Counted from the first letter of the stretch, positions 26,291 to 42,770 are shown. The stretch: DNA of 64,000 bases from a virus (IMGVR_UViG_2872147552_000001); one strand, 5' to 3'. The notes: generated by a model from the sequence alone, not told the origin. Program-made: numbers and translations.

Positions 26291-26301
26291 AATCAGTTCT
26301 C

Positions 26302-26691: not shown

Positions 26692-26707
26692 AGCGTTTTG
26701 CCCTCAA

Positions 26708-26727
26708 TACTGTTCATTTATACAGTA
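26708..26727. promoter_or_regulatory. LexA (SOS) box TACTGTTCATTTATACAGTA
   Basis: Matches the TACTGT-N8-ACAGTA consensus; lies 17-36 nt upstream of the UmuD'-like start codon. Confidence 0.75.
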
Positions 26728-26784
26728 TACATGAAAGAAGCTCACTCAGTGCAACTGATCGGTACATAGCACCAGACAAAGGAA

Positions 26785-26847
26785 CGTTATTTTCTCGAAC
26801 AAGAAAAGGTAGAAAACAAATTGTTTAAGGCCACAACTAGTGGCCTT
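26785..26847 (-). promoter_or_regulatory. truncated early promoter module plus terminator hairpin AAGGCCACAACTAGTGGCCTT
   Basis: Near-identical to the unit at 31041-31120 down to GTTATTTTC at about 26786, where similarity stops. Confidence 0.5.
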
Positions 26848-26863
26848 AATGGAGAAGGGATGC

Positions 26864-27427
26864 TTATTGGCTATGGCTAAAAATCAAATGAGACACTTCA
26901 TTTGGTTGTAGCTCGTCAAGATCCGGGGCCACAAAACCTTTTCCAAAAGACTTCACAAGTGATTCACCAGCCGCATCATTGTCACCTATTACGCGAAAGT
27001 CATACGGCAGCATTGCCAGTTGACGACGTAATCCTGCTGAGAAAGTCGAACCTAACAGCGCCCACGAATTTCCGCCCGCGTTGTGCACTGCTGCACTTTT
27101 AAAAATCGACTCAGTTATCCATATCGGTCCATCTTTTAAAGGAAGATAGGTTCCCCATAGTAGCTGTCTGCCGTTCGCTCGTGTGAAATACCGGGCCATC
27201 TTCGGATTGCTATGCTGCTTAGGAGCGCCTGGTCTGTATGTCTGATACCCGGCCAACATCCCATCAAACCTGTATAGAGGGAACGTAACAACTCCTTCGC
27301 TTTCATCGATCCACTGTCTATATGGATGCACATCATGGCGGTAGTTACGAGTTAGCAAATGAGCTTCCAGCTTTCCATATTTGGTCATAACTTCGCATCC
27401 CTCATAACACTTCCCATTTATCACCAT
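26864..27427 (-). CDS. Toprim-domain protein (primase-like)
   Basis: Conserved glutamate segment IWITESIFKSAAV and DxD motif RVIGDNDAAGESL typical of Toprim domains. Confidence 0.45.
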   Translation of the reverse strand: MVINGKCYEGCEVMTKYGKLEAHLLTRNYRHDVHPYRQWIDESEGVVTFPLYRFDGMLAGYQTYRPGAPKQHSNPKMARYFTRANGRQLLWGTYLPLKDGPIWITESIFKSAAVHNAGGNSWALLGSTFSAGLRRQLAMLPYDFRVIGDNDAAGESLVKSFGKGFVAPDLDELQPNEVSHLIFSHSQ

Positions 27428-28217
27428 ATTTCTCCATAGCTCTTAGCCAGTAAACATGGCCACTAGGCATAGTGATGTGAGGCTCGCCAAACTCTTCTCC
27501 ATGCACATCAAAGATGTCCCCAACAGAGAATTGGGGGATTTCTACGCCGTTTTCACCTATATGCGTAATTCGTATACGTTTCGGTTGAGATTCTCCCCCT
27601 TTGAGCGAGTTGTTCACTGCTCTGGCAATCTTCTCCCGCAATTGCTGCGTTCCGTGGTACTGAACCGCAATATCCCTCAACTCATTCACCAGTTCTCGAA
27701 TCTGGTGATCTTTAAGCTCATTATTTGAGTGATGGGTAACAACTCTGGTTAATTCACCCTTGTCTTTTGCTCTTACGTATGCAGCTCTTGTGCATTCGAC
27801 CCATGTATTACCGCCTACATTAACTTCGTAGATTAGGCTGGACTTATCTGTCAATTCGGAACAAATACGGGCCGTGGTCTGGCAACTAGAGCATTCGCAG
27901 TTATCGCGGAAACCGTGATCTACCGGTCGAGAAAGAGGTTTAACTTTTTCATCCAACTTCATCACAGCATCGTGATAAGCGTTCCAGCCGTCATCTTTAC
28001 CAAGTTGATAAATCTCTGAAGGCTCCATGTAGTCTATATCGCAACCTTCTTCATCCGATCTATCTGGTCGCTTCCCTGGTAATCGCTCATAAAAACGATT
28101 TCTGTCTCGACGTTCGGCTCTCAGTGCTAACGCAAGAAGTTGCTCAAGCGAGGTATTTGCACCAGCAATAATTTCATTGAGAATATCTTCTGTGAGATCT
28201 TTCGCTACCGTGCTCAT
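27402..28217 (-). CDS. hypothetical Cys-rich protein (possible zinc-binding partner of the Toprim protein)
   Basis: 271-aa ORF with clustered cysteines (CECSSCQ ... C); overlaps downstream gene by 26 nt. Confidence 0.3.
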   Translation of the reverse strand: MSTVAKDLTEDILNEIIAGANTSLEQLLALALRAERRDRNRFYERLPGKRPDRSDEEGCDIDYMEPSEIYQLGKDDGWNAYHDAVMKLDEKVKPLSRPVDHGFRDNCECSSCQTTARICSELTDKSSLIYEVNVGGNTWVECTRAAYVRAKDKGELTRVVTHHSNNELKDHQIRELVNELRDIAVQYHGTQQLREKIARAVNNSLKGGESQPKRIRITHIGENGVEIPQFSVGDIFDVHGEEFGEPHITMPSGHVYWLRAMEKYGDKWEVL

Positions 28218-28597
28218 TTATCTCTCTCAGTATGTTGCGATGGCGTAAATTTGACGACATCAAATATTTTGGATGGCATCAACTTTATCCGCGAGCTTAG
28301 TTCGGCTCTTCTCTGTAATGCGGTTAATAATGTTTTCGTTCTGACGCCTTCGTGTATCCTCATCCCTGGCACAAGAACTACATCGCAGGGGAGATGCTCA
28401 GGTGACAAATCATTTTGGGCATCGCTAATCAGTCGTGTAATCTCTCTTTCAAGCCGACCGCCTAGCTCTGTTTTAGTGCAATGTTCTGACCAATCACCAG
28501 CCTCAAGCAGCGCGAGAATGCTTAAAATATCGTCCAATAGATCAGTGGTATTATCGACTTCCTTCTGAAGCTCACCGGCTACTGATTTATGCATCAT
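28214..28597 (-). CDS. hypothetical protein
   Basis: 127-aa ORF translationally coupled to its neighbours. Confidence 0.35.
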   Translation of the reverse strand: MMHKSVAGELQKEVDNTTDLLDDILSILALLEAGDWSEHCTKTELGGRLEREITRLISDAQNDLSPEHLPCDVVLVPGMRIHEGVRTKTLLTALQRRAELSSRIKLMPSKIFDVVKFTPSQHTERDK

Positions 28598-29247
28598 TCG
28601 TCATCCTCATCCGAGTCATCCTCATCACAGGATGAGAGTAGTGGGTTAGTCATTCGCCCTACTTGAGTGGCGTAGCCACGCCGACAGAGATTGCGCAGCA
28701 CACTGTATATTTCGAACATCTCGGTTCGTTCATCGCCAACATCAAGCTCAGATGCTATAGCGTGGCATTCAGTCGCGAGAGCCGATATTTTCTGAAATAA
28801 CTCTGCATTATTCACTGTTCGACTCCTGCGGCGTTCTGGTAGTGACATCCAGTGTGTGACATTGCTAATCAGACCATATTCATTAGTTTGAGGATGGTTG
28901 CCGTTAGCGTCTCCGTATTTAAGACTCTCCATAAAGCCATAATGCCTATCACCATTAACGCTCACAAAGCCGTAATAAGCAGGTATAACGCCGATCTCAC
29001 ACGTAACCAGTAAAGGAAAACTAGTTCTCCAATTTAGCTCGCCAATTACAGGCATTCGCTCACTACAGCTTATCCAACCATCCTTAGATGCGGCTGTATT
29101 GGCATAGGCCTTACGGTGCTTCTGTAACTCTGCTGCAATCGCTCTCACGACTTCAACTGGTGCCCTTGCAGCAAACTCAATGTTGGTGATCAGCTCATTA
29201 AGATATTTCTCGCTTGGGTAGCATTTCTTATTGTTAACGGTGGTCAT
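28594..29247 (-). CDS. hypothetical protein with acidic C-terminal tail
   Basis: 217-aa ORF ending CDEDDSDEDDE. Confidence 0.35.
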   Translation of the reverse strand: MTTVNNKKCYPSEKYLNELITNIEFAARAPVEVVRAIAAELQKHRKAYANTAASKDGWISCSERMPVIGELNWRTSFPLLVTCEIGVIPAYYGFVSVNGDRHYGFMESLKYGDANGNHPQTNEYGLISNVTHWMSLPERRRSRTVNNAELFQKISALATECHAIASELDVGDERTEMFEIYSVLRNLCRRGYATQVGRMTNPLLSSCDEDDSDEDDE

Positions 29248-29432
29248 TAGGCAGCTCTCTCAACAACAAGCAATTCGTCGTAGTCATAATCAGTTTCGGA
29301 ACCATCCGTACCGAACAGAGTCACTTTGTCATTTTCCATCCAAAAAGATTTAACCGCACATTGTTGACCTTTAGATGTTATGAGCACATCACCAGGGATT
29401 ACGTCTTCAGCGCGAACCTCTAGTGTTCTCAT
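29247..29432 (-). CDS. hypothetical small protein
   Basis: 61-aa ORF, start and stop overlap adjacent genes. Confidence 0.3.
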   Translation of the reverse strand: MRTLEVRAEDVIPGDVLITSKGQQCAVKSFWMENDKVTLFGTDGSETDYDYDELLVVERAA

Positions 29433-29851
29433 CGTGCTGCCCCCTCTTTGGTGAAAATGCCTGCTGCAATGCTGTTTATGATGCTGTCAGTGCATGGAGT
29501 AGAAAGCTGGGCATCTCCAGCAATTTTCATGACCTCAACATCCGCATATCGAATACCGAGGTGTATCAGACCGGCTATACCTGACTTAAGTCGAACATTT
29601 TCCATAAACAGATCCTTTTCCCGCTGTTTAACGGTCTCCAGCTCAACACGCAACTTCTCAATTTCGGCAGCCATGTAGTAACCAACCATAGCGAAAGTGG
29701 CGAAAGGGTAGTCCGAATCATCAGGAGATACGGAGGCCATTAGCAGACCATCGTGCATGTTCTGGCTTCCATCAGTGATAGATACCGCATAAGAATCGCT
29801 GGTTTCCCGCTTATACAATACGACGACCGGGTTCTTGATTTTCTCTCTCAT
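29429..29851 (-). CDS. hypothetical protein
   Basis: 140-aa ORF in operon context. Confidence 0.35.
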   Translation of the reverse strand: MREKIKNPVVVLYKRETSDSYAVSITDGSQNMHDGLLMASVSPDDSDYPFATFAMVGYYMAAEIEKLRVELETVKQREKDLFMENVRLKSGIAGLIHLGIRYADVEVMKIAGDAQLSTPCTDSIINSIAAGIFTKEGAAR

Positions 29852-30405
29852 TACGATGCCTCTAACTTGTCTAACTCTTTCAGCCCTTCACGTACCGCGT
29901 TCACAATGCGTTCCAGATACTGGTATTTCGGGTTTGGTACCGTTGGCCAGTCGGCATACCACGGATCATCACCAAAGAGATTCAGTAGTTTGTTACCGAC
30001 GCCGAAACAGCAGCAGCTTTCTTTTACGTCATCGGCGTTTTCCGCCTCGTCCCACATTTCGCGAGCCAGTACGGCGTCTATTTCTCTCTCTCTTCGTAAC
30101 TTTATGATTTCTGACTTCACGAAAAGCAGATTTGCATCGTTGTCATCGTCGACCGTGCTTCGCAGTTGAGGGTCGAAATAGCCGATTAGATACTCGTTGC
30201 TGACCCGCTTAATGAACGTCTGCACATCATCACCGCCCATAGCAAACCAAGCCGCAGTCCACGCTTTTCCGTAGCAGGTGATGGTGATTCTTCCCTTACC
30301 AGGTTCGTAGTTTTCAATCATCACTCGAACCGGATCGAGGCGTTCCAGATCCGTCAGCACAAAGGAAAGAACATCTATTTTTTCGATCTTCATGCAGCCT
30401 CCCAC
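29851..30405 (-). CDS. hypothetical protein
   Basis: 184-aa ORF in operon context. Confidence 0.35.
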   Translation of the reverse strand: MGGCMKIEKIDVLSFVLTDLERLDPVRVMIENYEPGKGRITITCYGKAWTAAWFAMGGDDVQTFIKRVSNEYLIGYFDPQLRSTVDDDNDANLLFVKSEIIKLRREREIDAVLAREMWDEAENADDVKESCCCFGVGNKLLNLFGDDPWYADWPTVPNPKYQYLERIVNAVREGLKELDKLEAS

Positions 30406-31031
30406 GCGCTCCAGATCAGCGATTTGTGTTTTTCATAACGTTTGATGTGTACCGGTTTCAGAAGCGCAATACCTTCAGTGACTTTCGCCATTGCGCTTAA
30501 TAACAACGGGTGTTCTATACCTATCCTCTCCATGTACTCGACAACATCAGCGTTGGCACCAATCTCCTTCCCGTTAAAAAGTACGTCCAGCATCAGCTCT
30601 TTCTCTGCAAGGTAGATAGCTGAAAACTCAGGATCGCGACTCACGATAGAAGAGGTATTGTCGAGCAGGTCAGCCAGCTTGATCATGCGCGTCTGCATGT
30701 CGAGATTTTGCTCCAGCTCCCGGACATTGATGATGAAACGCTGTATTCGATTGCCGTCTTCTGGCCTTGCAATGTTGGTCAGAGCCTGAACCATTTCAGC
30801 TACGCGCTCACCGAAGTGATCACGAACCATCTCTATGGTTACATGGGTGTCTTCGACCACATCATGCAGAAGCGCCGCGATTTGCATCTCCACGGTTCCG
30901 TCATGCAATGCAACAATCTCTCGGACAGCAACCGGGTGGTTGATGTAGTCTTCGCCGGTATATTTTCTTTTCTGACCAACGCCACCATGAGCGCCAGCGG
31001 CGAACATATGAGCTTCGGAAATACTAGACAT
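30390..31031 (-). CDS. HD-domain small alarmone hydrolase (SpoT/Mesh1-type (p)ppGpp hydrolase domain)
   Basis: Motifs HPVAV, AALLHDVVEDT, FGERVAEMVQALT and IKLADLLDN match the RelA/SpoT hydrolase domain; 213 aa with no synthetase domain. Confidence 0.75.
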   Translation of the reverse strand: MSSISEAHMFAAGAHGGVGQKRKYTGEDYINHPVAVREIVALHDGTVEMQIAALLHDVVEDTHVTIEMVRDHFGERVAEMVQALTNIARPEDGNRIQRFIINVRELEQNLDMQTRMIKLADLLDNTSSIVSRDPEFSAIYLAEKELMLDVLFNGKEIGANADVVEYMERIGIEHPLLLSAMAKVTEGIALLKPVHIKRYEKHKSLIWSAWEAA

Positions 31032-31040
31032 TCTTAACTC

Positions 31041-31120
31041 CGTTGTTTTCTAGTTGTGGTTATTTTCACAAATAAGAAAAGGTAGAAAACAATTTATTTA
31101 AGGCCACAACTTATGGCCTT
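31041..31120 (-). promoter_or_regulatory. early promoter/operator module plus terminator hairpin AAGGCCACAACTTATGGCCTT
   Basis: Hairpin, inverted TTGTTTTCT/AGAAAACAA elements and -10-like sequence upstream of the HD hydrolase start. Confidence 0.45.
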
Positions 31121-31150
31121 TATTTATTCATGCCGAAGGATTTGTAGCGT

Positions 31151-31531
31151 CTAATTGCCGGATAAAATGGGGTGAGGTGCTTGCCAGTAGGCTCCACCGG
31201 TCCATGTGAACCCCATGCGAATAAGAGTGTTTATTGCGGCTTTGGTAGACTCCGATTCGACACTGGCTTTTCGAAACTCTTGAACCTCTTTCGCCAACTT
31301 GTATGTAATTGTGCAGGGGACGATTGCAGCCCAGCCTTTCTCATGACTGTTAATGACCATCTGGATGTGACCATCCAGAATAGGTTGATTAGGCATGTTA
31401 TTGAAAATGTCTGCCTGTTTTTGAATGTGAAGAAAAAGCCTTGCCAGCTCCATTTGCTCACTACGAGACAAGGGATTATCAAGAGGGCTTTTTGCAAAAG
31501 CGGCTATACGCTGTGCGTCAATGCCAAACAT
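31151..31531 (-). CDS. hypothetical protein
   Basis: 126-aa ORF. Confidence 0.35.
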   Translation of the reverse strand: MFGIDAQRIAAFAKSPLDNPLSRSEQMELARLFLHIQKQADIFNNMPNQPILDGHIQMVINSHEKGWAAIVPCTITYKLAKEVQEFRKASVESESTKAAINTLIRMGFTWTGGAYWQAPHPILSGN

Positions 31532-32235
31532 CAGCGCACCTCACCATCTTTATGGCTGGAGTTAACTTCCGCCATTAAATGTCTGACGTAATCGACAAGA
31601 GAGCCGCCTGGTGGAATCTGGCATTCCTCAACTAACTGGAAGTAGATATCCGCTGCATTACGTGTATTGCTACCCGCGCATATTCTTTCTTCCCGAAGTG
31701 CATGAAGCTCGTTGATCAAACGGTCACACTCTCCGTTACGCTGATCCACAACGGCCTCAAGCTCTGCGACGCGTTCACCTGGCGTCTTACCTTCTTTGCG
31801 TTGGATGGTAACGACGAAATCGCCAATTGCAGGGACGTTGTAATCCAGCTCAAGGTAGTTTTTGGCACCGCTGCGGACGAACTCACCCGCGAACATGGTG
31901 GCGAACATCGCAGAGGCCACTTCGCCGTTGAAAAGTGACTCCAGATCTAACGGAGTCCCGGCATCAAGAGCCTCTTTTGCTGTATCCATTGCATCCATGA
32001 ACCGATCAAACTCATTGGCGCGCTTTTCCAGGTTTTTCCATTGCTCGCTCCAACGTTTGGCAACGAAGTCTATGAATGTTTTCGCGGATTCATCAAAATT
32101 CCCCTCAAACTTAACGATGCCTTTATCAATAATGATCTGGCCTACCGCATCCTCTGCATAACCTTTCAATGTAAACTTGAAAGGAAAATCGGAATGGCCT
32201 GTGACGTTAAAATGCTCTAACTGGAGGTTGCTCAT
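31531..32235 (-). CDS. hypothetical protein
   Basis: 234-aa ORF; palindromic motif 32277-32297 upstream. Confidence 0.4.
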   Translation of the reverse strand: MSNLQLEHFNVTGHSDFPFKFTLKGYAEDAVGQIIIDKGIVKFEGNFDESAKTFIDFVAKRWSEQWKNLEKRANEFDRFMDAMDTAKEALDAGTPLDLESLFNGEVASAMFATMFAGEFVRSGAKNYLELDYNVPAIGDFVVTIQRKEGKTPGERVAELEAVVDQRNGECDRLINELHALREERICAGSNTRNAADIYFQLVEECQIPPGGSLVDYVRHLMAEVNSSHKDGEVR

Positions 32236-32295
32236 GTGTTTTCTCTTATCGTTTAGTTACTACATTCTTACATAAACTAAGTAAGTATTTACCTA

Positions 32296-33981
32296 TCATT
32301 TAACGCGTTTGAAAACGTATACGCTGACTGTGATCCCTGTGTCTTCAAACTCGTTGGTAAACGACTTCCCTCTGGCATAAACGTAATTATCCATCGTCAT
32401 CCAGTCCAGTATTGGCGCAGTGCCCGGCAATACTGCTACAAGACGCCCGCCGACTTTCAGATGCCCCAGCGCAGCCAGCGTGTGCTCTCTATGACGACCA
32501 AGCGAGTACGGCGGGTTCATAACGATTTTGTCGAACTGATAACCTACGTTGTCCTCAGACCACTTTATGAAGTCGCAGCAAATCGTGTTCGTATACCCTT
32601 TTCCGCGCAGGATATCAGCGAAGAGAGGTGCGATTTCTATGCAGGTAACATCTTCCAGATCGGCGTTAATATAGGCCAGAAGATCCCCACGTCCGGCTTG
32701 AGGCTCCAGCAGCTTCTCACCAGGCTTCAATTCAGTGGCTCTGGCAACGTACTCAGCAATCAAGCGTGGGGTAGGGTAGAACTGGTGTGATTTTGTATCC
32801 GGTATTAAACCGGTAGCCACAATCGTATTTAGCGTATGGACGATGTCATACGGGAACTGCCAGTGCTTTTTCTCCTGCACGCCGCCAATGAAGCTCAGTG
32901 TGCGCTCAAGCTCTTCCACCTGCGACTTCTGGAGAGCTGAATCAGAGAAGTACCATACGCCTTTGTCTTTGCTCAATCGCCCGTCACGAAGCGCAGTGCG
33001 AACCGGCACGGAGATCGTCTTCTGGATTAACCCGAACTGCTTTGGTGCCCGTGTTTTTGGCGCGGTGCGACATGGCGCGGGGATTGCAGCAGGCATACTG
33101 TAAGCCAGCACCTCATTCAACTTCCAGGCCACGTCAGGATGTATTTCAAAGTGAACGTTGCCGTTCTTGAACATCTTCACGCGCATCAGATTTCCATCGA
33201 CGTTCATCCAGTCACCGGTCTGGCAGTCGTTTGCCCGATACGCAGCTGATAGCACCTCAGCAGTGCGGTTGATGGTAATAAATTCTTTGTGCGCGAAGAA
33301 ATGAAGCAAGACACGCAGATCGTCGATGTAGTCCTCTTTGCGATAGTTCACGCTAACGCTGTCCCGCCAGAAATCAGAAATGCAGTCAGCGATTATCAGC
33401 CGCTCGCTGAAACCGTTTGTCTTATTTGTCTTGTGCGCAGGACTCAGCGCCTTAAACAAGCCATACACGCGCTCAGAGAGATATTTGTGCCTGTCATTCA
33501 GCAAATTAAGCATCGTGGGTATGACCGTTTCTGCTTTGAACTCCGGTACACCAACGAACTCTTTAACCTTCATCTGGTAGCCGGTTCTGTCAGTTTTGAT
33601 GACTTCCTGTTTGCCCTCTATAAACTGCTCGCGCCACTCATCTCGACGGGAAGCTGGCATGATCAGCAAAACGTTAGTCATGTCCGTGACCTTCCTCCAG
33701 TACTCGGCCCAAATATTCTGTTTCACCCATTCCAGATCGACTTTATCCAACCAACCTCGATTTAAACGCGAGCGATCTTCATCTGGTCGATGGTTTAGTC
33801 TCAGCAGGCGATTAATCATGTTGTGGCGTTCGTCGCCATAAACGAAGTCGTGTACCTGATACATGAAGGCGATCTCTTTCTCGCACTCGGCCACAATTTC
33901 GTGGATGACGTTCATTTCCTGCCGATAGTCGATAGCAGTGTTTGAGTTGGCATCGTCGATGATGGAAAGGGCTGTATTCAT
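32296..33981 (-). CDS. DNA N6-adenine (or N4-cytosine) methyltransferase fused to a ~380-aa N-terminal domain of unknown function
   Basis: C-terminal motif I (LEPQAGRGDLL) then motif IV (NPPYS) in gamma-class order; no recognisable motifs in the N-terminal 380 aa. Confidence 0.6.
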   Translation of the reverse strand: MNTALSIIDDANSNTAIDYRQEMNVIHEIVAECEKEIAFMYQVHDFVYGDERHNMINRLLRLNHRPDEDRSRLNRGWLDKVDLEWVKQNIWAEYWRKVTDMTNVLLIMPASRRDEWREQFIEGKQEVIKTDRTGYQMKVKEFVGVPEFKAETVIPTMLNLLNDRHKYLSERVYGLFKALSPAHKTNKTNGFSERLIIADCISDFWRDSVSVNYRKEDYIDDLRVLLHFFAHKEFITINRTAEVLSAAYRANDCQTGDWMNVDGNLMRVKMFKNGNVHFEIHPDVAWKLNEVLAYSMPAAIPAPCRTAPKTRAPKQFGLIQKTISVPVRTALRDGRLSKDKGVWYFSDSALQKSQVEELERTLSFIGGVQEKKHWQFPYDIVHTLNTIVATGLIPDTKSHQFYPTPRLIAEYVARATELKPGEKLLEPQAGRGDLLAYINADLEDVTCIEIAPLFADILRGKGYTNTICCDFIKWSEDNVGYQFDKIVMNPPYSLGRHREHTLAALGHLKVGGRLVAVLPGTAPILDWMTMDNYVYARGKSFTNEFEDTGITVSVYVFKRVK

Positions 33982-34084
33982 AATTGCACCATTAAGAAGT
34001 GATTTGTTTAATGGTGCAATTATTTCAAAAATGAAAAGGTACTAAATAGAAATAAACAGGCAATCCTTCAAATAAAGGCATTGG

Positions 34085-34699
34085 CTAATCATACTTGGAG
34101 GTATTTATCACCAGAATTTTGTTTGTATAAATCTTCTTAATATCCCATGTGACATTACCGGAATACCATTGACCGTTATATACTTGGTTTCCAGTTGCAC
34201 CTGTCATTGTTACATAGACAGGTCTGTCGTAATCGGTTCGTCTATAGTTATATACTCCAACCATAGCAGGCATTACCGCACATGGATACCCCATATCTAT
34301 TGTAAATTGAGGGTCAGAAATAGTGATAAGTTTCGCATCAAGGGGCATCATCTCACCGTGATACACCATTGCGCCTGCGCTGTTATACATGGCAATGCCA
34401 TAGCCAGAATGTGGTAACACCATATCAGAAAAAGCATAAACTGTTATTGTTCCGGGGCTACCATTTACCTGATGCAATCTGAGAGCATTGTATCCGTTAC
34501 TATGCTCATGAATAAACATCATGTTCGCCTTATTACTGCTTTTTATGAAGAAAAAGCATGATTTGTTTGATGGGATTGATGTTTGAAAAACAGAACCTTT
34601 AGATGTAGACATTGTCCCTTTATTAATCAGATTTTGCGGAGTAAATTCTGGACTCATCCACAAACTTCCATCTGATTGAGTAATTGACATCCCGAACAT
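34085..34699 (-). CDS. hypothetical protein (AT-rich island)
   Basis: Track ORF 34085..34756 trimmed to ATG at 34699, which follows the upstream stop by 2 nt; G/Y/N/T/S-rich, low GC. Confidence 0.3.
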   Translation of the reverse strand: MFGMSITQSDGSLWMSPEFTPQNLINKGTMSTSKGSVFQTSIPSNKSCFFFIKSSNKANMMFIHEHSNGYNALRLHQVNGSPGTITVYAFSDMVLPHSGYGIAMYNSAGAMVYHGEMMPLDAKLITISDPQFTIDMGYPCAVMPAMVGVYNYRRTDYDRPVYVTMTGATGNQVYNGQWYSGNVTWDIKKIYTNKILVINTSKYD

Positions 34700-34701
34700 A
34701 A

Positions 34702-34983
34702 TTATCCCCAGTATGTGTATATGTAAGAACCAAGCCCCGTATATAAATTTGACCAACTAACCGTATTTCCATTAATAGTAACTGTTGGAACAGGTAAATT
34801 AATGTAGTTGTCGTTGTTAAGAGGCATCAATGACCACACGGCATGTAGCGATTTACCCGGTGGCGGATTGGAGTACGTCTTAGAGCCTGATGACGCAGTA
34901 AATCGATCAAGAAAAAAAATAGGAGTAAGGAAGCCAGTAACGTTAATTCCTTTATTGTTGTAAATCCCTGTACCGTATGCCAT
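34702..34983 (-). CDS. hypothetical protein (AT-rich island)
   Basis: 93-aa ORF, same low-GC segment. Confidence 0.3.
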   Translation of the reverse strand: MAYGTGIYNNKGINVTGFLTPIFFLDRFTASSGSKTYSNPPPGKSLHAVWSLMPLNNDNYINLPVPTVTINGNTVSWSNLYTGLGSYIYTYWG

Positions 34984-35038
34984 TTTTCATCCTTGTTTTT
35001 TATCAACACAATATGGCCGATCATGCGGCCATATCAGA

Positions 35039-35608
35039 TCAATTAGAGCTTTGAAAGGCTTTGTGTGGCTGTGTTGCGAGGTTATGTCGATGGCTTAACT
35101 CACGCATCATGTCTTCAAGCCGACTCTTTGTGTCGTCGAGTTGGTCGGCCATTGCTCCCAAAAGCTGACGAACGGCCATCGGATCATCGCTGTTTAGTGA
35201 TGGCATTTTATAACCCGCCTGAGAAGACATAAGATTGAACGCAGACATCAACATCGTTAGAGAGGATTTAAGCCCAGCAATTTCACGATCTTTGCTGGCA
35301 ATAATCGCCTCACTCTTGTTAGTGTCATCAGTTCGTTGAGTCTCGCTCACCATATCCAAAGTCGCCTGCAACTTATCAGCGCGCTCTTTTTCAGCAAGAT
35401 AATGAACACCGAAATGATGTGCTAAAGCTACAACCTGAGTTGGCTCTTCAAAGGTGGACTCAAAATTAAGTGCTGTAACCACTCTCTCAAATATGGAAAC
35501 GTCTTCTATTCCTCGAAGAATGGCTAACATTTTGACCAGTTCATTAGCATCCATTTCTTCGAATAAGGCGTTTTGTTCATCAGCTATCGCTTTGCATTTC
35601 TTGCACAT
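35039..35608 (-). CDS. hypothetical protein
   Basis: 189-aa ORF with AGGAAAAACAC-ATG context; promoter module at 35627-35661. Confidence 0.4.
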   Translation of the reverse strand: MCKKCKAIADEQNALFEEMDANELVKMLAILRGIEDVSIFERVVTALNFESTFEEPTQVVALAHHFGVHYLAEKERADKLQATLDMVSETQRTDDTNKSEAIIASKDREIAGLKSSLTMLMSAFNLMSSQAGYKMPSLNSDDPMAVRQLLGAMADQLDDTKSRLEDMMRELSHRHNLATQPHKAFQSSN

Positions 35609-35905
35609 GTGTTTTTCCTAATGCTTAAACAAGTTGTTTTCTTATTGGCTTTATTGTGATGTGGCATAAAAGGGGAGCAAGCTAAACGTAAAGGTGCAAA
35701 CTCTCTATTTCGGTCAACGAAACACAAGGGCCATTTGGCCCTTGTCATTAACACGTTGCTTTACGGACTAGCGGATAAGCGAAGTAGATCGCCAGACCAA
35801 TGAGGACGCCATCAGAAATGACAGACATCATCTTTCCCGTAAAATCCACCAACACCGCCATCACCAGAAGAGCAATGACGGTCACAAGCCGGAATCTCTC
35901 AAGCA

Positions 35906-36331
35906 TTAGAGATAAGCATCCAGTGACAACTGAAGCGCCTGTGCGATCTTTTTCAGTGCCAGCTCTTCTTGTTCGCCAATACCGTCTTGGTCGGCAATAT
36001 CAAGGCACAGACACAGTACATCTACTGCATCATTAGTCCCGGCCACATCAGCCAGCTCACGTAAAGCCTGGGCATTAGCGCGGCGCGGTGAGGCTTCGTA
36101 TTGAGCACGGATATTGGCGCTCATTTGGGCAATCTCACCAGCAAACGGAGAAAACGCAGGCAGAGCTGCAATTGTTTTCTCAAGAATGGAAATTTCCTTT
36201 GCGTCGCATGTGCCATCGGCATAGGAGATCATGTACGCGCCCCACACGGTGGCTTCAACCGCATCACGGTTCTCCATTTTTTTGACTTCAATAACAGCTT
36301 TACGAGTTTTCTTTTTGAATAAACCTAACAT
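35906..36331 (-). CDS. TerB-like (tellurite-resistance TerB fold) protein, tentative
   Basis: All-helical 141-aa protein with paired ADG...E and DQDG...EE segments resembling TerB; AAGGAAAACAC RBS. Confidence 0.4.
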   Translation of the reverse strand: MLGLFKKKTRKAVIEVKKMENRDAVEATVWGAYMISYADGTCDAKEISILEKTIAALPAFSPFAGEIAQMSANIRAQYEASPRRANAQALRELADVAGTNDAVDVLCLCLDIADQDGIGEQEELALKKIAQALQLSLDAYL

Positions 36332-36423
36332 GTGTTTTCCTTTTATTATTTGTCAAAACAAGTTGTTTTCTAGTTTCATAAATGCTTGCGCAAAGATGGT
36401 CAATGCATATGCACTAACAACCG

Positions 36424-36612
36424 TCAGAAATAACCAAGTACCGAACCAACTGGAAAAACAAAAATCCCAACTACACGAGCCAAGGTCATGCCAGCCTGAA
36501 ACTGGAGATCACCAGAGCAAACAAGTTTTATAATGTTCGATACCCAACCGGCGGCCATGAGGGCCAGAATTGCCAGCCAAATTTTTCCAAAGTGATTTGA
36601 AAACCAGTTCAT
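36424..36612 (-). CDS. small membrane protein
   Basis: 62-aa ORF with two predicted hydrophobic helices. Confidence 0.35.
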   Translation of the reverse strand: MNWFSNHFGKIWLAILALMAAGWVSNIIKLVCSGDLQFQAGMTLARVVGIFVFPVGSVLGYF

Positions 36613-36621
36613 ACAACCGCC

Positions 36622-37116
36622 TTAGTCACAACATGATCCTGAGTAACTGGATGAACTTGAGGTATCGCATCCACCGTCATCCCATCCAGAGTGACAGGAC
36701 GCTCTACTGGAGTGGTGGTAATTGTCGTCGACGGAGGTGTGGTGATGGATGAACCCGGCATCAAAAGGCTCTGGCCGGCTGGAACGGCTATCGTCGCCAG
36801 TGAAACTATAATGAGAACGTAGGCCATTGGTTTCAGCCTCTTTCTTTGAAAATTTTCCATTCGAACTGTCCTTGTTGTTTTTCTCCTTCACTAAAGGCCG
36901 TGCATTTTTCGCTTGGTGTGAAGAACCAGAGGTAACAATCGCCCCCACGTTCGCAACAACTGACGCTTGCTTATCTAAACGTTCATTCAGCAACCGAACG
37001 GTAGTCTCCAGTTCATCAAGACGTGACAGAACACGACCGCTAAATAATTCGGCCAAAATTTGACGTAGTGAACGAGGACGTTTAGTTGCAGAAGTGAAAT
37101 AGGTTTGACGTGCCAT
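36622..37116 (-). CDS. hypothetical protein (frame ambiguous; overlaps an alternative-frame ORF 36609..36860)
   Basis: 164-aa ORF with basic helical N-terminus and Ser/Cys-rich C-terminus; alternative frame encodes a hydrophobic segment plus Pro/Thr-rich tail. Confidence 0.3.
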   Translation of the reverse strand: MARQTYFTSATKRPRSLRQILAELFSGRVLSRLDELETTVRLLNERLDKQASVVANVGAIVTSGSSHQAKNARPLVKEKNNKDSSNGKFSKKEAETNGLRSHYSFTGDDSRSSRPEPFDAGFIHHHTSVDDNYHHSSRASCHSGWDDGGCDTSSSSSYSGSCCD

Positions 37117-37261
37117 GTGGACTCCATCCAGTGTCAGAAAGAGTTGCGGCTGGCGATTGCCAGCCGCCTTTCTCGTTCCATCCTGGAACTGTGTCTTACC
37201 GACACATTGTCATCCTGACGCTGATAAGATACATGATTTAAAATGATAGGTAAACACTTAC

Positions 37262-37855
37262 TTACTGCTTGTTGTAAACAAAACCAATATCTTTCTTGTG
37301 AGGCATATCTGCTGCGGAAAAAGCTGCGATCTTCGCGAGTCGATCACATATTTCATTTTCACGATGCCCGGCGTGACCTTTAACCCACTTCCAGCGAACA
37401 TTATGTCGACTTGCAGCCTCATCCAGACGCTTCCACAGATCAACATTCTTTACCGGTTTTTTGTCAGAAGTCACCCATCCATTGCGTTTCCACCATTTCA
37501 TCCACTGTGTCATGCCGTTTTTCAGATACTGGCTATCAGAGTACAAAATAACGTTGCATGGATATTTCAAACGCTCCAGCCCGATAAGTGCGCCCATCAT
37601 CTCCATGCGGTTATTGGTGGTGCTATGAAAACCATCTGAGAACTCGCGTTCCTCACCACGATACTGGAGAACGATACCGTAACCACCCGGGCCACCCGGA
37701 TTTTTAAGGCAAGAGCCATCACTAAAGATTTTCACGGTTTTGAGCTGGGGATTGAACTCTACGACAGGCGTTGTGGGATTGGTGCGGGGAGAATTTTTGT
37801 TTTTGGCTTTTTTGCGAGTTTTTGCTTGCGATCGGGCTGGTGTCTTCGTCGTCAT
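37262..37855 (-). CDS. ribonuclease HI
   Basis: RNase H fold motifs ([41 protein letters not shown]); track GTG start 37906 replaced by ATG at 37855 with AGGAG RBS. Confidence 0.8.
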
Positions 37856-38439
37856 ATAAACTCCTGAATCAAGCGCCGCGCCGATTTTTTCCTCGCGCGT
37901 GCGCACACGCGTGCGTGTTAATAATTATTAAAATAAACAAATTACTTCCCAGAACAGGTTTTTATAAACCTGAACTGAACGAACGAAGTGAGTGAAGTTC
38001 ACCTCGAACGAAGTGAGAGGTTGTCTTTTCAGGTAATACTCTCCCAGGGAGGTGAGTATAAAAATCCCTCACCAACCTGGTCGTTTCATAACCTGAAAAG
38101 TTATGGCCTAAGTCTACTGCCAGCTTAGACTTGGGAAGTTATGGATGACAGCACCCCAGAACCGAGATCTTCCCACACTTTATGAAGGGGAGTACTGGAT
38201 TCAACCTCTCGAAACACCCCAGACTCGACAATCATAAAGTGACCCTTGTCTCCGCTCACTTTGGTTCCCCCTTCCCCGACACCTAAACGGCACCGGTTCT
38301 ACGCTGGTAGTGAGCTTTTTTTAAACCTGACGCCAGTGACGCTTACCCCCACCCATCAGGTCGAGTCTCCAGTCTACGACTGGAAACTAGCAGATCTTAG
38401 CACTTACAATTCACTTTATGAATAGTTTGTACTTATCTA

Positions 38440-38694
38440 TCATTTCGATTGATTATTTTCTCGACCATGTAGTTGAACATTCAAGGCAAACACCTCATTG
38501 ATCAACTCACCTAAAAGCTGTTCAACAAGTTCGCGATGCTCGCCAAGATGCAAGCACTTAATTGCCCATTCGTACAAGTTGAAAGCCTGCTCGCGATCTT
38601 TCATCATTTCACGGGCCTGGGCCAGAAAATCGCTCTCTACGAGCGCAACGACATTAGTCGGGTATGACATGTTGGTTTCCTTAAAGTGGTTCAT
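38440..38694 (-). CDS. hypothetical small protein
   Basis: 84-aa ORF downstream of nested hairpin element copy 2. Confidence 0.4.
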   Translation of the reverse strand: MNHFKETNMSYPTNVVALVESDFLAQAREMMKDREQAFNLYEWAIKCLHLGEHRELVEQLLGELINEVFALNVQLHGRENNQSK

Positions 38695-38750
38695 AAAATC
38701 GATTTTAAAGCGTCTGGGAAGGGGTTCTAGTGGATTCTGTAGTGGTGTTC

Positions 38751-38850
38751 AGGTCTGGGAGTCTCTGATATAAAACAGCCTGCTTCCGTATATTAATAAT
38801 TAATATGTAGTTATTTATATATACAGAAGCAGGCTAATTACAGACGCCAG
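38751..38850. repeat. nested inverted-repeat element, copy 2
   Basis: Shares AGGTCTGGG and the GCCTGCTTCCGTATAT / TATATACAGAAGCAGG arms with the copy at 8250-8349. Confidence 0.6.
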
Positions 38851-38856
38851 AACAAA

Positions 38857-39450
38857 CTAAGCAGCCTTCTTTGATGGTCTTTTTTTCCTGATCACATTCG
38901 CAGGATCATACCCTCCCAGACTTTTCATGACATCCAAAGGGATCTTGCTTATAGAGTGCCCAGCGTCCTGACAGAATCCTCGAAAAACAACGAGCATACT
39001 GCCACCGGGGTTGATGTTTACTTCTACCTGACCCAGATTGACGTCAGGCTCGACAAACGCTACGCGGCCACCAGACAGAATAATCGTCTCATTCGCACAC
39101 TCTGTTGCACGCTCATACCACTTTGTATCGAGGGATTGAGGAATTAGCATCACTGTTGTAACTCCGCGAGCCTGCTCACGTATAGCCGCATCAATCCAGG
39201 GGGAGATTTTGGAGTAGGGTGGATTGAGGAAGGCAATTGTACCTGGCTGCCCCCATTCAGATTTCAAAGCATCACGCTCAACGCCTATGAAATTAGGCAG
39301 CTTCGCATTATCCTTGTTGCAGGCAACGTCAACATCAAATGTCACTCCAAGATAACGTTGAATGGCAGAAAACAGCCAGTCAGGTGTTCTCCAGAGGTCA
39401 CGAAGAGAGTTGTCGCGCTTTCGCTGTTTGATTTTTTCGGCTGCAATCAT
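38857..39450 (-). CDS. phage-type DNA N6-adenine methyltransferase (Dam-like)
   Basis: IAFLNPPYS catalytic motif and overall size (197 aa) typical of phage Dam-family enzymes; palindromic motif 39461-39481 immediately upstream. Confidence 0.7.
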   Translation of the reverse strand: MIAAEKIKQRKRDNSLRDLWRTPDWLFSAIQRYLGVTFDVDVACNKDNAKLPNFIGVERDALKSEWGQPGTIAFLNPPYSKISPWIDAAIREQARGVTTVMLIPQSLDTKWYERATECANETIILSGGRVAFVEPDVNLGQVEVNINPGGSMLVVFRGFCQDAGHSISKIPLDVMKSLGGYDPANVIRKKRPSKKAA

Positions 39451-39633
39451 CTTCTTTCTCGATAGGTAAGTGATTACCTATTTTTGCATTTGATTTTATG
39501 TCTGGCAATCAAATAAAACGCGACAGAAATGCAAACGAGAAGCTCTCTGGCGCGTTTTTGTGGTGCTGGATATGTGATTGGCTTACCCAGCACTATAAAG
39601 CTCTCTATGGGCTTTATTTTCAGTAGGGGGACG

Positions 39634-40443
39634 TCATCCAATAGTGTACTCCGCGACAAACTTCTTAACGATCGGTGATTCTTCGTTCAATGTTAGATTT
39701 CCACCGTCTCTAACAGCAATTCCTGTAGCTGGAAATACAGCCATCATTTGCCCAGCCTGAGTTGACGCAGTGTTAAGCGGATACGGTTTTTCTGGATTGC
39801 TCATTAAAGCAATCTTAATACTATTACTTGTAGCCTTCTTTTCTGTGAGAAGGTGTCTCATGGAAATTACCGTGTAAACACTAATATCTGGACCTCCGCT
39901 AAACCAATTAAGAAGGTTTAATATCTTATCCTTTGCTTTGACAGGCGCGTTTTCGTAAGCGTCTAAGAAAATATCTTTTTCTAAGCCTGCTTTATTGAAA
40001 AACAAATCATCTTTATCACTTAAAGTAAAACGAGGACCTCTTGCAGTACGAGCTTTTTTATTTGTATTGCTATCATTTGACTGTTGAACTTTTAATTCAT
40101 CATTAACCTCAACACACTCTTCAACCTCAATAAACCCCAATTGTTCTGGCTCGTTTTCGGCAGATTCAACACTTTCAGCCTTAATTACGTTTATAGGCTC
40201 ATGAGCTAACTCCAACTCATTTAAAGCGGAGCTGAAATCACCTGCTTTTCCTTCATTGAACAGTTCTTCGGCAACATCATCAGAACTCATGGCTACGCCA
40301 GCATCGAGGCCGAGAAGCAGATCGTCAATATCATCAGTATTTTCAACCTGTGCAGCTTTTTTTACTGGTTCATCAAGTGATTGCAACATGGCTGTCAGCT
40401 CATCCAGATCATCATTTGTCATTACATTTTCAACCGAACTCAT
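39634..40443 (-). CDS. highly acidic protein, hypothetical (DNA-mimic-type anti-restriction candidate)
   Basis: N-terminal 130 aa about 30 percent D/E (DDLDELTAMLQSLDEP..., ESVESAENEPEQ); lower-GC segment. Confidence 0.4.
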   Translation of the reverse strand: MSSVENVMTNDDLDELTAMLQSLDEPVKKAAQVENTDDIDDLLLGLDAGVAMSSDDVAEELFNEGKAGDFSSALNELELAHEPINVIKAESVESAENEPEQLGFIEVEECVEVNDELKVQQSNDSNTNKKARTARGPRFTLSDKDDLFFNKAGLEKDIFLDAYENAPVKAKDKILNLLNWFSGGPDISVYTVISMRHLLTEKKATSNSIKIALMSNPEKPYPLNTASTQAGQMMAVFPATGIAVRDGGNLTLNEESPIVKKFVAEYTIG

Positions 40444-40601
40444 GTAAGTCTCCTTCTGTTTGGTTACATTTGCGTTTCGATGGCTACATTTTGACTAAAC
40501 CTATCAGGCGGAAAAGTATTAAATACAGGCAGGAAATGATTGAAAGGCGACTGTTCTTTAAAAGAAAGCCTACTTTAAACTTTTTAAAGTAGGCTTTTGT
40601 T

Positions 40602-41159
40602 TTACACAATTTCAGAGGGTAATTTAAAAAATCCGTACTTATTACGTGCCTTAAAGAAGCATTGCATCATTAAGTTTGTGTCATATAAGGCACTATGTGC
40701 TTTGGCATGATCGTATATAAAGCCAAGAGAGAAGGCCAACTCTTCAAGGCGGGGACGTTTACCGTCTTCTGTGGCCCACAATCCCGATAACATAGTATCT
40801 ATAACAGGAACTTCTGGCAGTCTTACTCCATACCCTGAAAACTCGTGTCGAATAAATGGTATATCAAATGCTTCGCCGTTATGAGCAACCCACACACTAC
40901 ATGCCCCCATATAAGCGCCAATTTCGCTGGCATGATTTGACAACAAAGGTTCAGCTGCGAGCTGTTCCAATGAAATGCCATGAACGGCTTGAGCTTTCGG
41001 ATCTATGTTTCTGCGAGGGTTAAAACGCATCTCCAGACTATCAATATGTCTCTGTGTCTCCAGTTCATAGCGGGTAATTGCGATTTCAATAATTTTATGA
41101 CCAGCAAGGAAATCCAGTCCCGTAGACTCGATATCGATGCCTGCAACAATCGTTGTCAT
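40602..41159 (-). CDS. DnaQ-like 3'-5' exonuclease (DEDDh)
   Basis: Exo I DIESTG, Exo II HNGEAFDIPF, Exo III HSALYD. Confidence 0.75.
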   Translation of the reverse strand: MTTIVAGIDIESTGLDFLAGHKIIEIAITRYELETQRHIDSLEMRFNPRRNIDPKAQAVHGISLEQLAAEPLLSNHASEIGAYMGACSVWVAHNGEAFDIPFIRHEFSGYGVRLPEVPVIDTMLSGLWATEDGKRPRLEELAFSLGFIYDHAKAHSALYDTNLMMQCFFKARNKYGFFKLPSEIV

Positions 41160-41649: not shown

Positions 41650-42294
41650 CTAATGAACGGTCACTCGGCCACAGAACCGGTTTTCTATCTTTTCTACAGC
41701 GTTATCTAGCATTCTCATCACTGATCTGGCTCTTGCTTCAACCGTGCGATATCGGTTGGAAACGACGAAGGTTTGCAGATCCCCCCTTTGCGGATGCAGG
41801 TGAATTTTTGTCAGTTCCCCGCACATCAACGCATCAATACGAGCGACATACAGACGGTCTAATGATGCTCGTTGTGATCGCAAGTAATCTCGCTCTGAGA
41901 GAGCGACTCCCGGGCGTAGGCCAGCAATGGCGTTAAAGTTTGAAATAGCAGTTTTGTGGCAAAACTTTTCGATATCGAGGGCTAACTCAATACACCGATC
42001 TTCATTTGTATGGCCGACCAAATCCAACGTGTAGGCCATAACATCAGCAGGTGTGCGATCGATAACAAAGCCTTCAACACCACGTGTAAGTAGCTCTATA
42101 TGCTTTGCTATTTCCATTTGAATCTGAAGCCGCTCATATAGAGGCATAGACTCACCTACTCGAACACCGAGGCGGCTCATCAAACTTCCGACACCAGCAT
42201 CCACGTAAGGGATTCCGTAATGTTTGTCGATATATTTAGCCAGGGTTGTTTTCCCACTGCCCTGAGCACCAGTGATCCCAATCCGGTAATCCAT
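41650..42294 (-). CDS. P-loop nucleotide kinase (possible dNMP/thymidylate-type kinase)
   Basis: Walker A GITGAQGSGKTTLAKYI at N-terminus, DRT segment resembling the kinase DRY/DRX motif; embedded among nucleotide-metabolism genes. Confidence 0.5.
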   Translation of the reverse strand: MDYRIGITGAQGSGKTTLAKYIDKHYGIPYVDAGVGSLMSRLGVRVGESMPLYERLQIQMEIAKHIELLTRGVEGFVIDRTPADVMAYTLDLVGHTNEDRCIELALDIEKFCHKTAISNFNAIAGLRPGVALSERDYLRSQRASLDRLYVARIDALMCGELTKIHLHPQRGDLQTFVVSNRYRTVEARARSVMRMLDNAVEKIENRFCGRVTVH

Positions 42295-42770
42295 TACGAC
42301 CTTCTGTATACGATCTGCGAAAAGCCAGGCTCTTCCTCGCTGGCTCGTTGGGTAAAAACTGTTTCAACAGGCACAAAGCCTAAATTACGCATCATGCTTG
42401 CCGGGAAGAATGCATCGGCGTTTGGCACATCAACGCCGATGTGGGAGAGCCAAATCTCTTCAACATGCGGCATGAATAGCGAGTAAATTTGTTCCCCGCC
42501 AATCACCCACACAGGCTCTGGTAATCGCAACACATCATCCACACCAGCAGGGTAGAATCCATTTGGTACAAAGCCATGAGAGCGCGTCAAAACGAGGTTA
42601 TGACGCTCTGGAAGAGGGCGTTTGAGACTTTCCATCGTTTTACGCCCCATAACGACAGTGGCGTTTTTGGTGAGTCTCTTAAATAGCTTCAGATCGGTAG
42701 AACAACGCCAGGGGAGTTCATTCGCTATGCCGATCTCATAGTTACGGCCAACAGCAGCGATCATCTTCAT
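42294..42770 (-). CDS. dihydrofolate reductase
   Basis: MKMIAAVGRNYEIGIANELPW... with the DHFR-type N-terminal M-I-A-A and GRKT motifs; 158 aa. Confidence 0.8.
   Translation of the reverse strand: MKMIAAVGRNYEIGIANELPWRCSTDLKLFKRLTKNATVVMGRKTMESLKRPLPERHNLVLTRSHGFVPNGFYPAGVDDVLRLPEPVWVIGGEQIYSLFMPHVEEIWLSHIGVDVPNADAFFPASMMRNLGFVPVETVFTQRASEEEPGFSQIVYRRS

Follow-up and report, generated by a model that had tools for sequence, protein, structure and literature searches.

Two predicted DNA adenine methyltransferases of an SSU5-like phage-plasmid, one of them joined to an N-terminal DUF4942 region

The phage-plasmid and its two methyltransferase genes

The window analysed here, a 64,000-nucleotide stretch of viral DNA (IMGVR_UViG_2872147552_000001), belongs to an SSU5-like phage-plasmid of E. 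coli. It is 98% identical at the DNA level to phages CMS-2020a and Cyrano and 83% identical to SSU5. Nearly all of its matching places in E. coli genomes (247 of 256) are plasmid-borne. SSU5-like phage-plasmids are found in 251 of 5,426 complete E. coli genomes (about 5%), and Salmonella and Klebsiella plasmid records hold them as well. Such elements can carry resistance genes (PMC9600943).

Two methyltransferase genes are located on the minus strand, within a long block of DNA-metabolism and early genes. The first (32296..33981, stop codon at 32296-32298) encodes a 561-residue protein with a DUF4942 region and a methyltransferase core, and the second (38857..39450) encodes a small Dam-type N6-adenine methyltransferase of phages, 197 residues long. 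Both reading frames were proposed in an initial annotation of this DNA, and the same gene models recur in the independent annotation of near-identical records (CYRAN_90 and CYRAN_79 in Cyrano, and the PGAP annotation of p4_0.2). The pair was described in the initial annotation as belonging to a phage; the carrier is here a phage-plasmid, and neither gene is unusual, each being nearly identical to genes already catalogued. In Pfam scans the flanking ORFs match only HD, TerB and RNase H. No nuclease gene neighbours either methyltransferase gene in Cyrano, p4_0.2, two prophages and an IncHI2 plasmid. A restriction-modification system was considered and rejected, an adjacent cognate restriction endonuclease gene being absent from the loci inspected.

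The 197-residue protein is a phage N6-adenine methyltransferase of a routine and common kind, as its family matches show. It scores above the cut-offs of PF05869 (Dam; E 2.5e-38, 131.8 bits against 28.1) and TIGR01712 (phage_N6A_met; 113.9 bits against 97.05), which bears out its first description as Dam-like, and it matches phrog_111 with an E-value of 1.6e-65. Its catalytic motif, NPPYS, occupies aa 76-80 (39211..39225, minus strand). Relatives are present in 1,979 phage records; identity is 39% to the enzymes of Stx phages and about 30% to the Dam of T1-like phages. The Dam enzymes of phages T1 and VT2 are specific for GATC, and GATC or a similarly short site is probably the target here. 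The window contains 292 GATC sites against 336 expected, a count that is not depleted and is compatible with this specificity, though not diagnostic of it.

Architecture of the 561-residue protein

The 561-residue protein is comprised of a long N-terminal region (aa 1-392) and a C-terminal catalytic core, and this layout is that of its family. All 548 positions of phrog_6263 match aa 1-561 (E 5.5e-299), and PF13708, the Pfam model of DUF4942, matches aa 140-295 (E 1.2e-20, 74.5 bits, cut-off 25). Protein clusters named "DUF4942 domain-containing protein" are 99% identical to it. A search with aa 1-392 gave 609 representative relatives; almost all of the best 150 have a length of 500-580 residues with the matching region N-terminal, and an alignment of 29 homologues, down to 33% identity, is collinear with the query. 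The fusion, singled out in the initial annotation as a special feature, is therefore the family norm: judged from the alignments, DUF4942 followed by a methyltransferase is a fixed architecture and not peculiar to this gene. The PF13708/PHROG 6263 proteins of SSU5, Cyrano and CMS-2020a and an S. Typhi protein named "YdiA" are 92-99% identical to it. Within the SSU5-like phage-plasmids the match is full-length, with the same genome position and domain order, and the protein is a typical member without notable difference. The four mentions of the DUF4942 family found in the literature are passing ones, and no measured activity, substrate or motif was found there for any member.

The catalytic core (aa 393-561; 32299..32805, minus strand) is that of a SAM-dependent N6-adenine methyltransferase. 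It has the class I Rossmann methyltransferase fold and is superimposable on solved gamma enzymes. The five motifs of an intact M.TaqI-like core follow each other in the gamma order X, I, II, III, IV within these 169 residues, and all are invariant or nearly so among the 29 homologues. Motif X is QFYPTP (aa 400-405; 32767..32784), as is usual in HsdM and in DNA enzymes of the gamma type; Q400, F401, Y402, P403 and P405 are invariant in it. The SAM-binding motif I, EPQAGRGD (aa 426-433; 32683..32706), has invariant P427, A429 and G430 and aligns to LEPACAHGPF of M.TaqI. E449 represents motif II and D470-F471 motif III. The catalytic motif IV, NPPY (aa 489-492; 32506..32517), aligns to the NPPY of M.TaqI, and its N489, P490 and P491 are invariant. 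Translating the coordinates given for motifs X, I and IV reproduced all three sequences. The profile of the protein matches M.TaqI (E 6e-4) and EcoR124II HsdM (E 0.009); against type II methyltransferase models the E-value is 3.8e-10, and the best match in the PADLOC defence library is mad2 (E 1.1e-15, aa 394-523). A target-recognition domain C-terminal to the core is absent, aa 561 directly following the last core strand. The gamma-class label given earlier to this part thus stands as regards motif I and motif IV, in that order and with motif X before them. Since the C-terminal recognition domain that defines the class is missing, the label is valid for the motif order only.

The N-terminal region was at first described as having no recognisable motifs. 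It does contain DUF4942, and the full-length PHROG match spans it, although a motif of known function is still not among its features. The first 82 residues (33736..33981, minus strand) are acidic (pI 5.1) and poorly conserved, with 9-15% identity to distant members. They are mostly helical, with helices at residues 19-48 and 52-62 in the structure model and low confidence for residues 1-18. The DUF4942 core follows (aa 83-305; 33067..33735, minus strand) and holds most of the invariant residues of the N-terminal region: W95, T102, W116, R164, S180, H183, T185, N186, D221, L222, R223, W258, D262, G263, H277, H281 and P282. Structure prediction, proposed earlier as a check on this region, yields an alpha/beta core whose fold has no counterpart in the PDB.

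Two elements of the DUF4942 core stand out in the alignment. One is the invariant S-x-x-H-x-T-N loop, LSPAHKTNK (aa 179-187; 33421..33447, minus strand), which is disordered in the model, pLDDT falling below 50 at residues 183-186 in both models of the protein. Its coordinates were checked by a one-codon offset, 33424-33450 translating to ALSPAHKTN (aa 178-186). The other is HFEIHPD (aa 277-283; 33133..33153, minus strand; HFEIH is the translation of 33139-33153), with invariant His277, His281 and Pro282.

The last part of the N-terminal region (aa 306-392; 32806..33066, minus strand) is a variable linker and small alpha/beta subdomain adjoining the catalytic core. With a pI of 9.8 it is the sole clearly basic segment of the protein. 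Its identity to distant members is 28-32% with many indels, and it is one of three variable, indel-rich segments of the family, the others being aa 122-145 and aa 232-257. In phrog_9133 it accompanies the catalytic core (match to aa 328-560, E 4.6e-50). From these sequence properties it is the best candidate for contacts with the DNA sequence.

Distribution and proposed function

The 561-residue protein is, by its sequence, a member of a widespread catalogued family combining DUF4942 with a TaqI-like core. Full-length homologues are present in at least 2,135 plasmid records, and the hosts of the family include Variovorax, Methylomonas, Aeromonas, Pseudomonas and Enterobacterales. Carriers of relatives include lambdoid prophages as well as SSU5-like phage-plasmids and IncHI2 plasmids, and other orphan methyltransferases are often adjacent. 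In lambdoid prophages of Variovorax and of one Enterobacterales strain the gene lies beside methyltransferases of the PF01555 and PF00145 families, and on an IncHI2 plasmid it adjoins a Dam-family gene. In some relatives it is reduced to a 5' remnant, the part encoding aa 1-82, which abuts a complete type I restriction-modification system that displaced the gene. The gene is dispensable, as expected of an accessory function.

As neither this region of the window nor any related locus inspected showed a nuclease partner, self-protective modification, the role suggested at the outset, is the most reasonable one. The presence of two enzymes may, as was also suggested, mean protection against two restriction specificities. 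Restriction clearly remains relevant to the element despite methylation, A-containing palindromes being strongly avoided: for each of AAGCTT, GAATTC, GAGCTC and GCATGC the count in the window is 0 against 10-16 expected. TCGA, like GATC, shows no depletion, while several 6-bp palindromes are absent. Prophage-borne orphan methyltransferases are frequently silent in lysogens (PMC4659465).

We favour, with somewhat better than even confidence, a reading in which both genes encode orphan SAM-dependent DNA N6-adenine methyltransferases that serve self-protection, the N-terminal module of the larger enzyme being used for recognition. The C-terminal 169 residues would be a complete M.TaqI/HsdM-like core for the flipping and methylation of adenine. 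The chain ends after this core, and recognition must therefore come from the N-terminal 392 residues, which probably supply DNA binding or recognition. Within them, the DUF4942 core may act as a constant scaffold or DNA clamp, and aa 306-392, beside the catalytic core, may make the sequence-specific contacts. By methylating its own DNA as it replicates, the element would then be shielded from restriction in new hosts. N-terminal target recognition, as first supposed, finds a candidate in the variable basic segment, but the DUF4942 core is too conserved for the usual specificity-swapping domain. Identity to the most distant members is 39-51% in its conserved blocks against 42% in the catalytic core, and conservation equal to that of the catalytic core is usually not seen in such domains; this leaves room for another, constant function.

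A more far-reaching proposal, which we hold tentatively and at rather less than even confidence, is that the DUF4942 region is either a DNA-recognition or clamping module of new fold or a second conserved activity, with the S180-H183-T185-N186 loop and the His277/His281 pair as its functional centre. It would define a separate class of adenine methyltransferases, in which the recognition module is N-terminal to a gamma-order core. If so, this class would be one of the most frequent among the untested methyltransferases carried by enterobacterial plasmids, phage-plasmids and prophages.

The conservation of the DUF4942 core, in very different hosts, would also fit constant, non-specific binding. 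The 561-residue enzyme might then be a promiscuous or a single-strand- or entry-specific adenine methyltransferase, a functional analogue of M.EcoGII/M.EcoGIX, giving broad protection while DUF4942 binds DNA independently of sequence. The concentration of the family on phages, phage-plasmids and conjugative plasmids agrees with this, as do the related catalytic cores within giant virion proteins that are annotated as anti-restriction proteins of the DarB kind, and promiscuous plasmid methyltransferases are known (PMC7736820). We nevertheless regard it as unlikely. M.EcoGIX and M.BceJIII belong to the beta class with DPPY and are unrelated in architecture, avoidance of the four palindromes is unexpected if most adenines are methylated, and the three indel-rich segments resemble specificity-determining regions. 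A bifunctional protein, in which DUF4942 has an independent activity, enzymatic or directed against defence (for example by binding a restriction or defence protein of the host), appears quite improbable, even though the invariant polar set (S180, H183, T185, N186, D221, R223, D262, H277 and H281) is richer than is usual in a binding domain and includes the disordered loop. Besides the unmatched fold of the region and a conservation equal to or exceeding that of the catalytic core, such an activity could draw on the occurrence of DUF4942 without a methyltransferase in a 299-residue phage family (phrog_38825, E 6e-6) and on DUF4942-annotated genes in genomic islands beside KlcA, RadC and toxin-antitoxin genes (PMC6980539). 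Against this, no similarity of the N-terminal region to any enzyme or nuclease fold was found, and the strand region that would hold PD-(D/E)XK residues (aa 198-211) is variable. Moreover, a core without its own recognition domain needs part of the N-terminal region for DNA binding, and the fused architecture is almost universal among relatives.

NPPY occurs also in glutamine and RNA adenine methyltransferases. Enzymes of the KsgA/Erm type come close behind, and there are weak sequence matches to the RrnaAD, KsgA and Erm models, all of which could speak for methylation of RNA or protein (m6A in rRNA or tRNA, or glutamine N5) instead of DNA. The better sequence matches are to DNA enzymes (M.TaqI, HsdM, the type II methyltransferase models and mad2), motif X is of the type found in such enzymes, and in the early regions of phages, genes of the family accompany other DNA methyltransferases. 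We infer that DNA is the substrate and consider RNA or protein very improbable.

Full-length homologues of the DUF4942-methyltransferase are carried by more than 2,000 sequenced plasmids, IncHI2 resistance plasmids included. Knowledge of the target would show which restriction barriers such elements can cross and whether DUF4942 reads DNA in a new way, and it would aid the reading of unexplained m6A motifs in methylome data.

Comparison with known systems

Giant virion anti-restriction proteins similar to DarB of phage P1 contain a related core inside phage proteins of 1,200-3,900 residues, some of them annotated as DarB-like or virion proteins. The giant PHROG families match the 561-residue protein in the methyltransferase core only, and its gene is located in the DNA-metabolism block and not among structural genes. 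Assignment to this group was rejected, the protein being only 561 residues long and having no helicase match in Pfam, NCBIfam and PADLOC scans. M.EcoGIX and M.BceJIII are also orphan methyltransferases of mobile elements with a role in establishment or anti-restriction; they are single-strand methyltransferases of plasmid leading regions and belong to the beta family with a DPPY motif (PMC7736820). Membership in this group was likewise rejected, as motif I precedes NPPY in the 561-residue protein, and both motif order and family differ.

Mad2 of the MADS defence system has the closest catalytic-core profile in PADLOC, and the core is C-terminal in both proteins. Mad2 is required for m6A modification of DNA at TCAGNNNNTCC (bioRxiv 10.1101/2023.03.30.534895). 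It is part of an eight-gene defence operon and has a bipartite target, whereas the 561-residue protein is encoded by an orphan gene on a phage-plasmid, and no match to its N-terminal region was detected in the Mad2 profile comparison. M.TaqI, M.BseCI and CamA each have a large C-terminal recognition domain; the 561-residue protein has instead a 392-residue N-terminal region of unmatched fold.

The methyltransferase genes and the surrounding block

The two open reading frames of the initial annotation are present exactly as placed there, at 32296-33981 (561 aa) and 38857-39450 (197 aa), both on the minus strand, and their gene models agree with the independent annotations of phage Cyrano and, by PGAP, of plasmid p4_0.2. 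The latter, a close relative of 110 kb, carries no other methyltransferase genes. The window covers much of an SSU5-like phage-plasmid of E. coli. The region 31000-41000 is 98% identical to Escherichia phages CMS-2020a and Cyrano over 99% of its length, and 83% identical to Salmonella phage SSU5 over about half. The two methyltransferases are 99% identical to clusters of more than 1,000 member sequences and can be regarded as near-identical members of catalogued families.

Both genes belong to a long minus-strand block that also encodes ribonucleotide reductase, thymidylate synthase, DHFR, a 3'-5' exonuclease, RNase HI, a TerB-like protein, Ead/Ea22-like proteins and an HD-domain protein. A promoter and terminator scan of 31000-41000 returned 11 promoter-like sites, compared with 17.2 in shuffles, and the tRNA scan found no tRNA genes in the window. 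The DHFR gene lies at about 42294-42770, as estimated from the neighboring reading frames. PGAP calls its counterpart in p4_0.2 'trimethoprim-resistant dihydrofolate reductase DfrA51'; the gene belongs to the phage nucleotide-metabolism block and is not an acquired resistance cassette. Between 34085 and 34983 there are two small reading frames of 223 and 93 aa without a Pfam match, for which the gene models of p4_0.2 differ. Their DNA is 78-80% identical to that of genes called 'membrane associated protein / outer membrane protein' in JenP1, JenP2 and BRET, three unrelated 60-kb coliphages. The segment looks like a mosaic module, possibly with a role in superinfection exclusion. The segment 22973-26264 carries metG (methionine-tRNA ligase) and apbC (Fe-S cluster carrier) genes of host-like type, adjoined by a gene for an S24 peptidase (HumD-like), all labeled as in annotated close relatives.

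The smaller protein was described as a Dam-like enzyme with an NPPYS motif. The motif is found at aa 76-80, and the family is given by matches above the curated cut-offs of PF05869 (Dam, E 2.5e-38) and of the NCBIfam equivalog TIGR01712, 'phage N-6-adenine-methyltransferase'. By tblastn, relatives occur in 1,979 phage records, with 39% identity in Stx-converting phages and about 30% in T1-like phages; no solved structure for any member of the family was detectable by sequence. The protein is one of the ordinary orphan methyltransferases of phages. Its target is plausibly GATC, because the Dam enzymes of T1 and VT2 act on this site. The window shows no depletion of GATC (292 copies against 336 expected), and a literature search on PF05869/TIGR01712 found no specificity data. 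The non-specific enzymes Hia5 and Hin1523 were considered as members of the small Dam-type family and ruled out, as their motif is DPPY and their recognition region lies centrally.

Architecture of the 561-aa enzyme

The catalytic core occupies aa 393-561. It contains motif X (QFYPTP, aa 400-405), motif I (EPQAGRGD, aa 426-433), the motif II acid E449, motif III (D470-F471) and motif IV (NPPY, aa 489-492), all of which show little or no variation among 29 aligned homologues, the most distant at 33% identity. Motif I precedes motif IV, as read earlier from the sequence. In the PDB, the family profile matches M.TaqI (E 6e-4) and the HsdM subunit of EcoR124II (E 0.009). The best PADLOC match is mad2, the methyltransferase of the MADS defense system (E 1.1e-15), which is needed for DNA m6A at TCAGNNNNTCC (bioRxiv 10.1101/2023.03.30.534895). 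The conserved motifs and these matches together indicate an intact core that resembles DNA m6A enzymes most closely.

The N-terminal region had been said to lack recognisable motifs, but aa 140-295 match Pfam DUF4942 with an E-value of 1.2e-20, and the full-length protein matches PHROG 6263. Every homologue that has a name is labeled 'DUF4942 domain-containing protein', 'DNA modification methylase' or similarly. A phmmer search of 1.84 billion representative proteins with aa 1-392 alone retrieved 609 relatives at E <= 0.001, of which 139 reach 1e-30. The best 150 of the 609 are nearly all 500-580 aa long and match at their N-terminus, so that the DUF4942 region followed by the methyltransferase core is the family's fixed architecture. 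The initial observation holds and its interpretation is supported in part: self-protection by two methyltransferases stands as a proposal, and the 'fusion' is common to the whole family.

Conservation is unevenly distributed along the chain. The blocks aa 83-121, 146-231 and 258-305 retain 39-51% identity to the most distant members, on a par with the catalytic core (42%), whereas variability is much higher in aa 1-82, 122-145, 232-257 and 306-392. The last of these, with a pI of 9.8, is the sole clearly basic stretch of the protein, and it accompanies the catalytic core in the 1,259-aa phage proteins of phrog_9133. The invariant residues include the S180-x-x-H183-x-T185-N186 loop, D221-L222-R223, D262-G263 and H277/H281-P282. 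In both models the loop (aa 179-187, window 33421-33447), which belongs to the DUF4942 core, has pLDDT below 50, as no other internal part of the N-terminal region does; it may have a function and become ordered only on a substrate. Literature searches returned only four passing mentions of DUF4942, with essentially no literature on the family, and nothing relevant on SSU5 and methylation.

Distribution, gene loss and restriction

Among 5,426 complete E. coli genomes, 251 have the 561-aa gene; plasmids hold 247 of the 256 matching places. Full-length homologues occur in at least 2,135 plasmid records; IncF and IncI plasmids contain only a related catalytic core, labeled 'class I SAM-dependent methyltransferase' or ydcA. 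Lambdoid prophages of a Variovorax and of an Enterobacterales strain have distant homologues in their early-right regions, adjoined by PF01555 and PF00145 methyltransferases. In the IncHI2 plasmid pMRVIM0813 (4351-8635 of the extracted locus), a Dam-family gene and a DUF4942-methyltransferase gene lie within 3 kb of each other, close to replication genes; the pairing is common to IncHI2 plasmids and the phage-plasmid of the window. The enzymes are orphans: none of the loci examined has a restriction nuclease gene beside the methyltransferase.

The gene is dispensable. Only the first ~157 codons remain in E. coli PC-NDM34 pIncFIB, and ~62-71 in K. pneumoniae pGH27_175, in both cases abutting a type I system, of which HsdR and HsdS were seen in pGH27_175. 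In pIncFIB the system is complete, and hsdM-hsdS-hsdR replaces the body of the methyltransferase gene together with the downstream Ead/Ea22 and HD-domain genes, which correspond to lower window coordinates. The region of about 26300-33500 is thus a variable accessory island. The N-terminal 157-aa and 62-aa families phrog_16000 and phrog_25525 were considered as mobile 'modules' and rejected; they are 5' remnants of the gene from SSU5-like plasmids in which a type I system has taken its place.

Nine places matching the gene are chromosomal, of which the one in E. coli AST85 (NZ_AP043644) was inspected. The leader-proximal spacer of its type I-E CRISPR array (1501-1533 of the extracted locus) matches window 33274-33306, inside the gene, at 33 of 33 positions, and the PAM in the window is ATG. 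Immunity to the phage-plasmid at this gene has therefore been gained recently by one E. coli lineage or more.

Across the whole window (1-64000), 6-bp palindromes are strongly avoided. Under a Markov model AGCGCT, AAGCTT, GAGCTC, GCATGC and GAATTC are each absent against 10-16 expected, GGCGCC occurs once against 13 and CTGCAG three times against 15; GATC, TCGA, ATCGAT and TCGCGA show no depletion. Besides methylation, the element seems to counter restriction in a second way, by avoiding sites.

Proposed mechanism and comparison with known enzymes

The analysis establishes family membership, intact motifs, fold, fixed architecture, orphan status and occurrence on mobile elements; for substrate, target motifs, the division of labor in the N-terminal region and biological role, we infer the following. 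Both enzymes would act as orphan DNA m6A methyltransferases on the element's own DNA, and this self-modification would make the DNA less sensitive to restriction when the element enters a cell by infection or transfer. In lysogens, methyltransferases encoded by prophages are frequently silent. Since the 561-aa chain stops where the catalytic core ends, DNA binding would have to be supplied by the N-terminal region, in which the conserved DUF4942 core may have a constant role, as a scaffold or clamp, and the variable basic segment aa 306-392 may read the sequence.

The larger enzyme might instead be promiscuous or specific to entry. We consider this unlikely. The A-containing palindromes AAGCTT, GAATTC, GAGCTC and GCATGC are missing from the window (0 against 10-16 expected for each), which speaks against blanket adenine methylation. 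That the DUF4942 region carries a second activity is improbable. An RNA or protein substrate would be compatible with the fold of the core taken alone, but the core most resembles DNA m6A enzymes and such a substrate is very improbable.

The interest of the system is modest: the family is a very common methyltransferase of mobile elements, still uncharacterised, with an N-terminal region of unmatched fold. An S. Typhi homologue bears the source name 'YdiA', which we took to point to the leading-region enzyme of IncI1, M.EcoGIX. This tie was ruled out, as M.EcoGIX is a beta-class DPPY enzyme (PMC7736820). The architecture of M.EcoGIX and of Hia5 is unrelated to that of the 561-aa enzyme. With gamma-class enzymes it has the catalytic core in common, but the C-terminal recognition domain that defines the class is absent.
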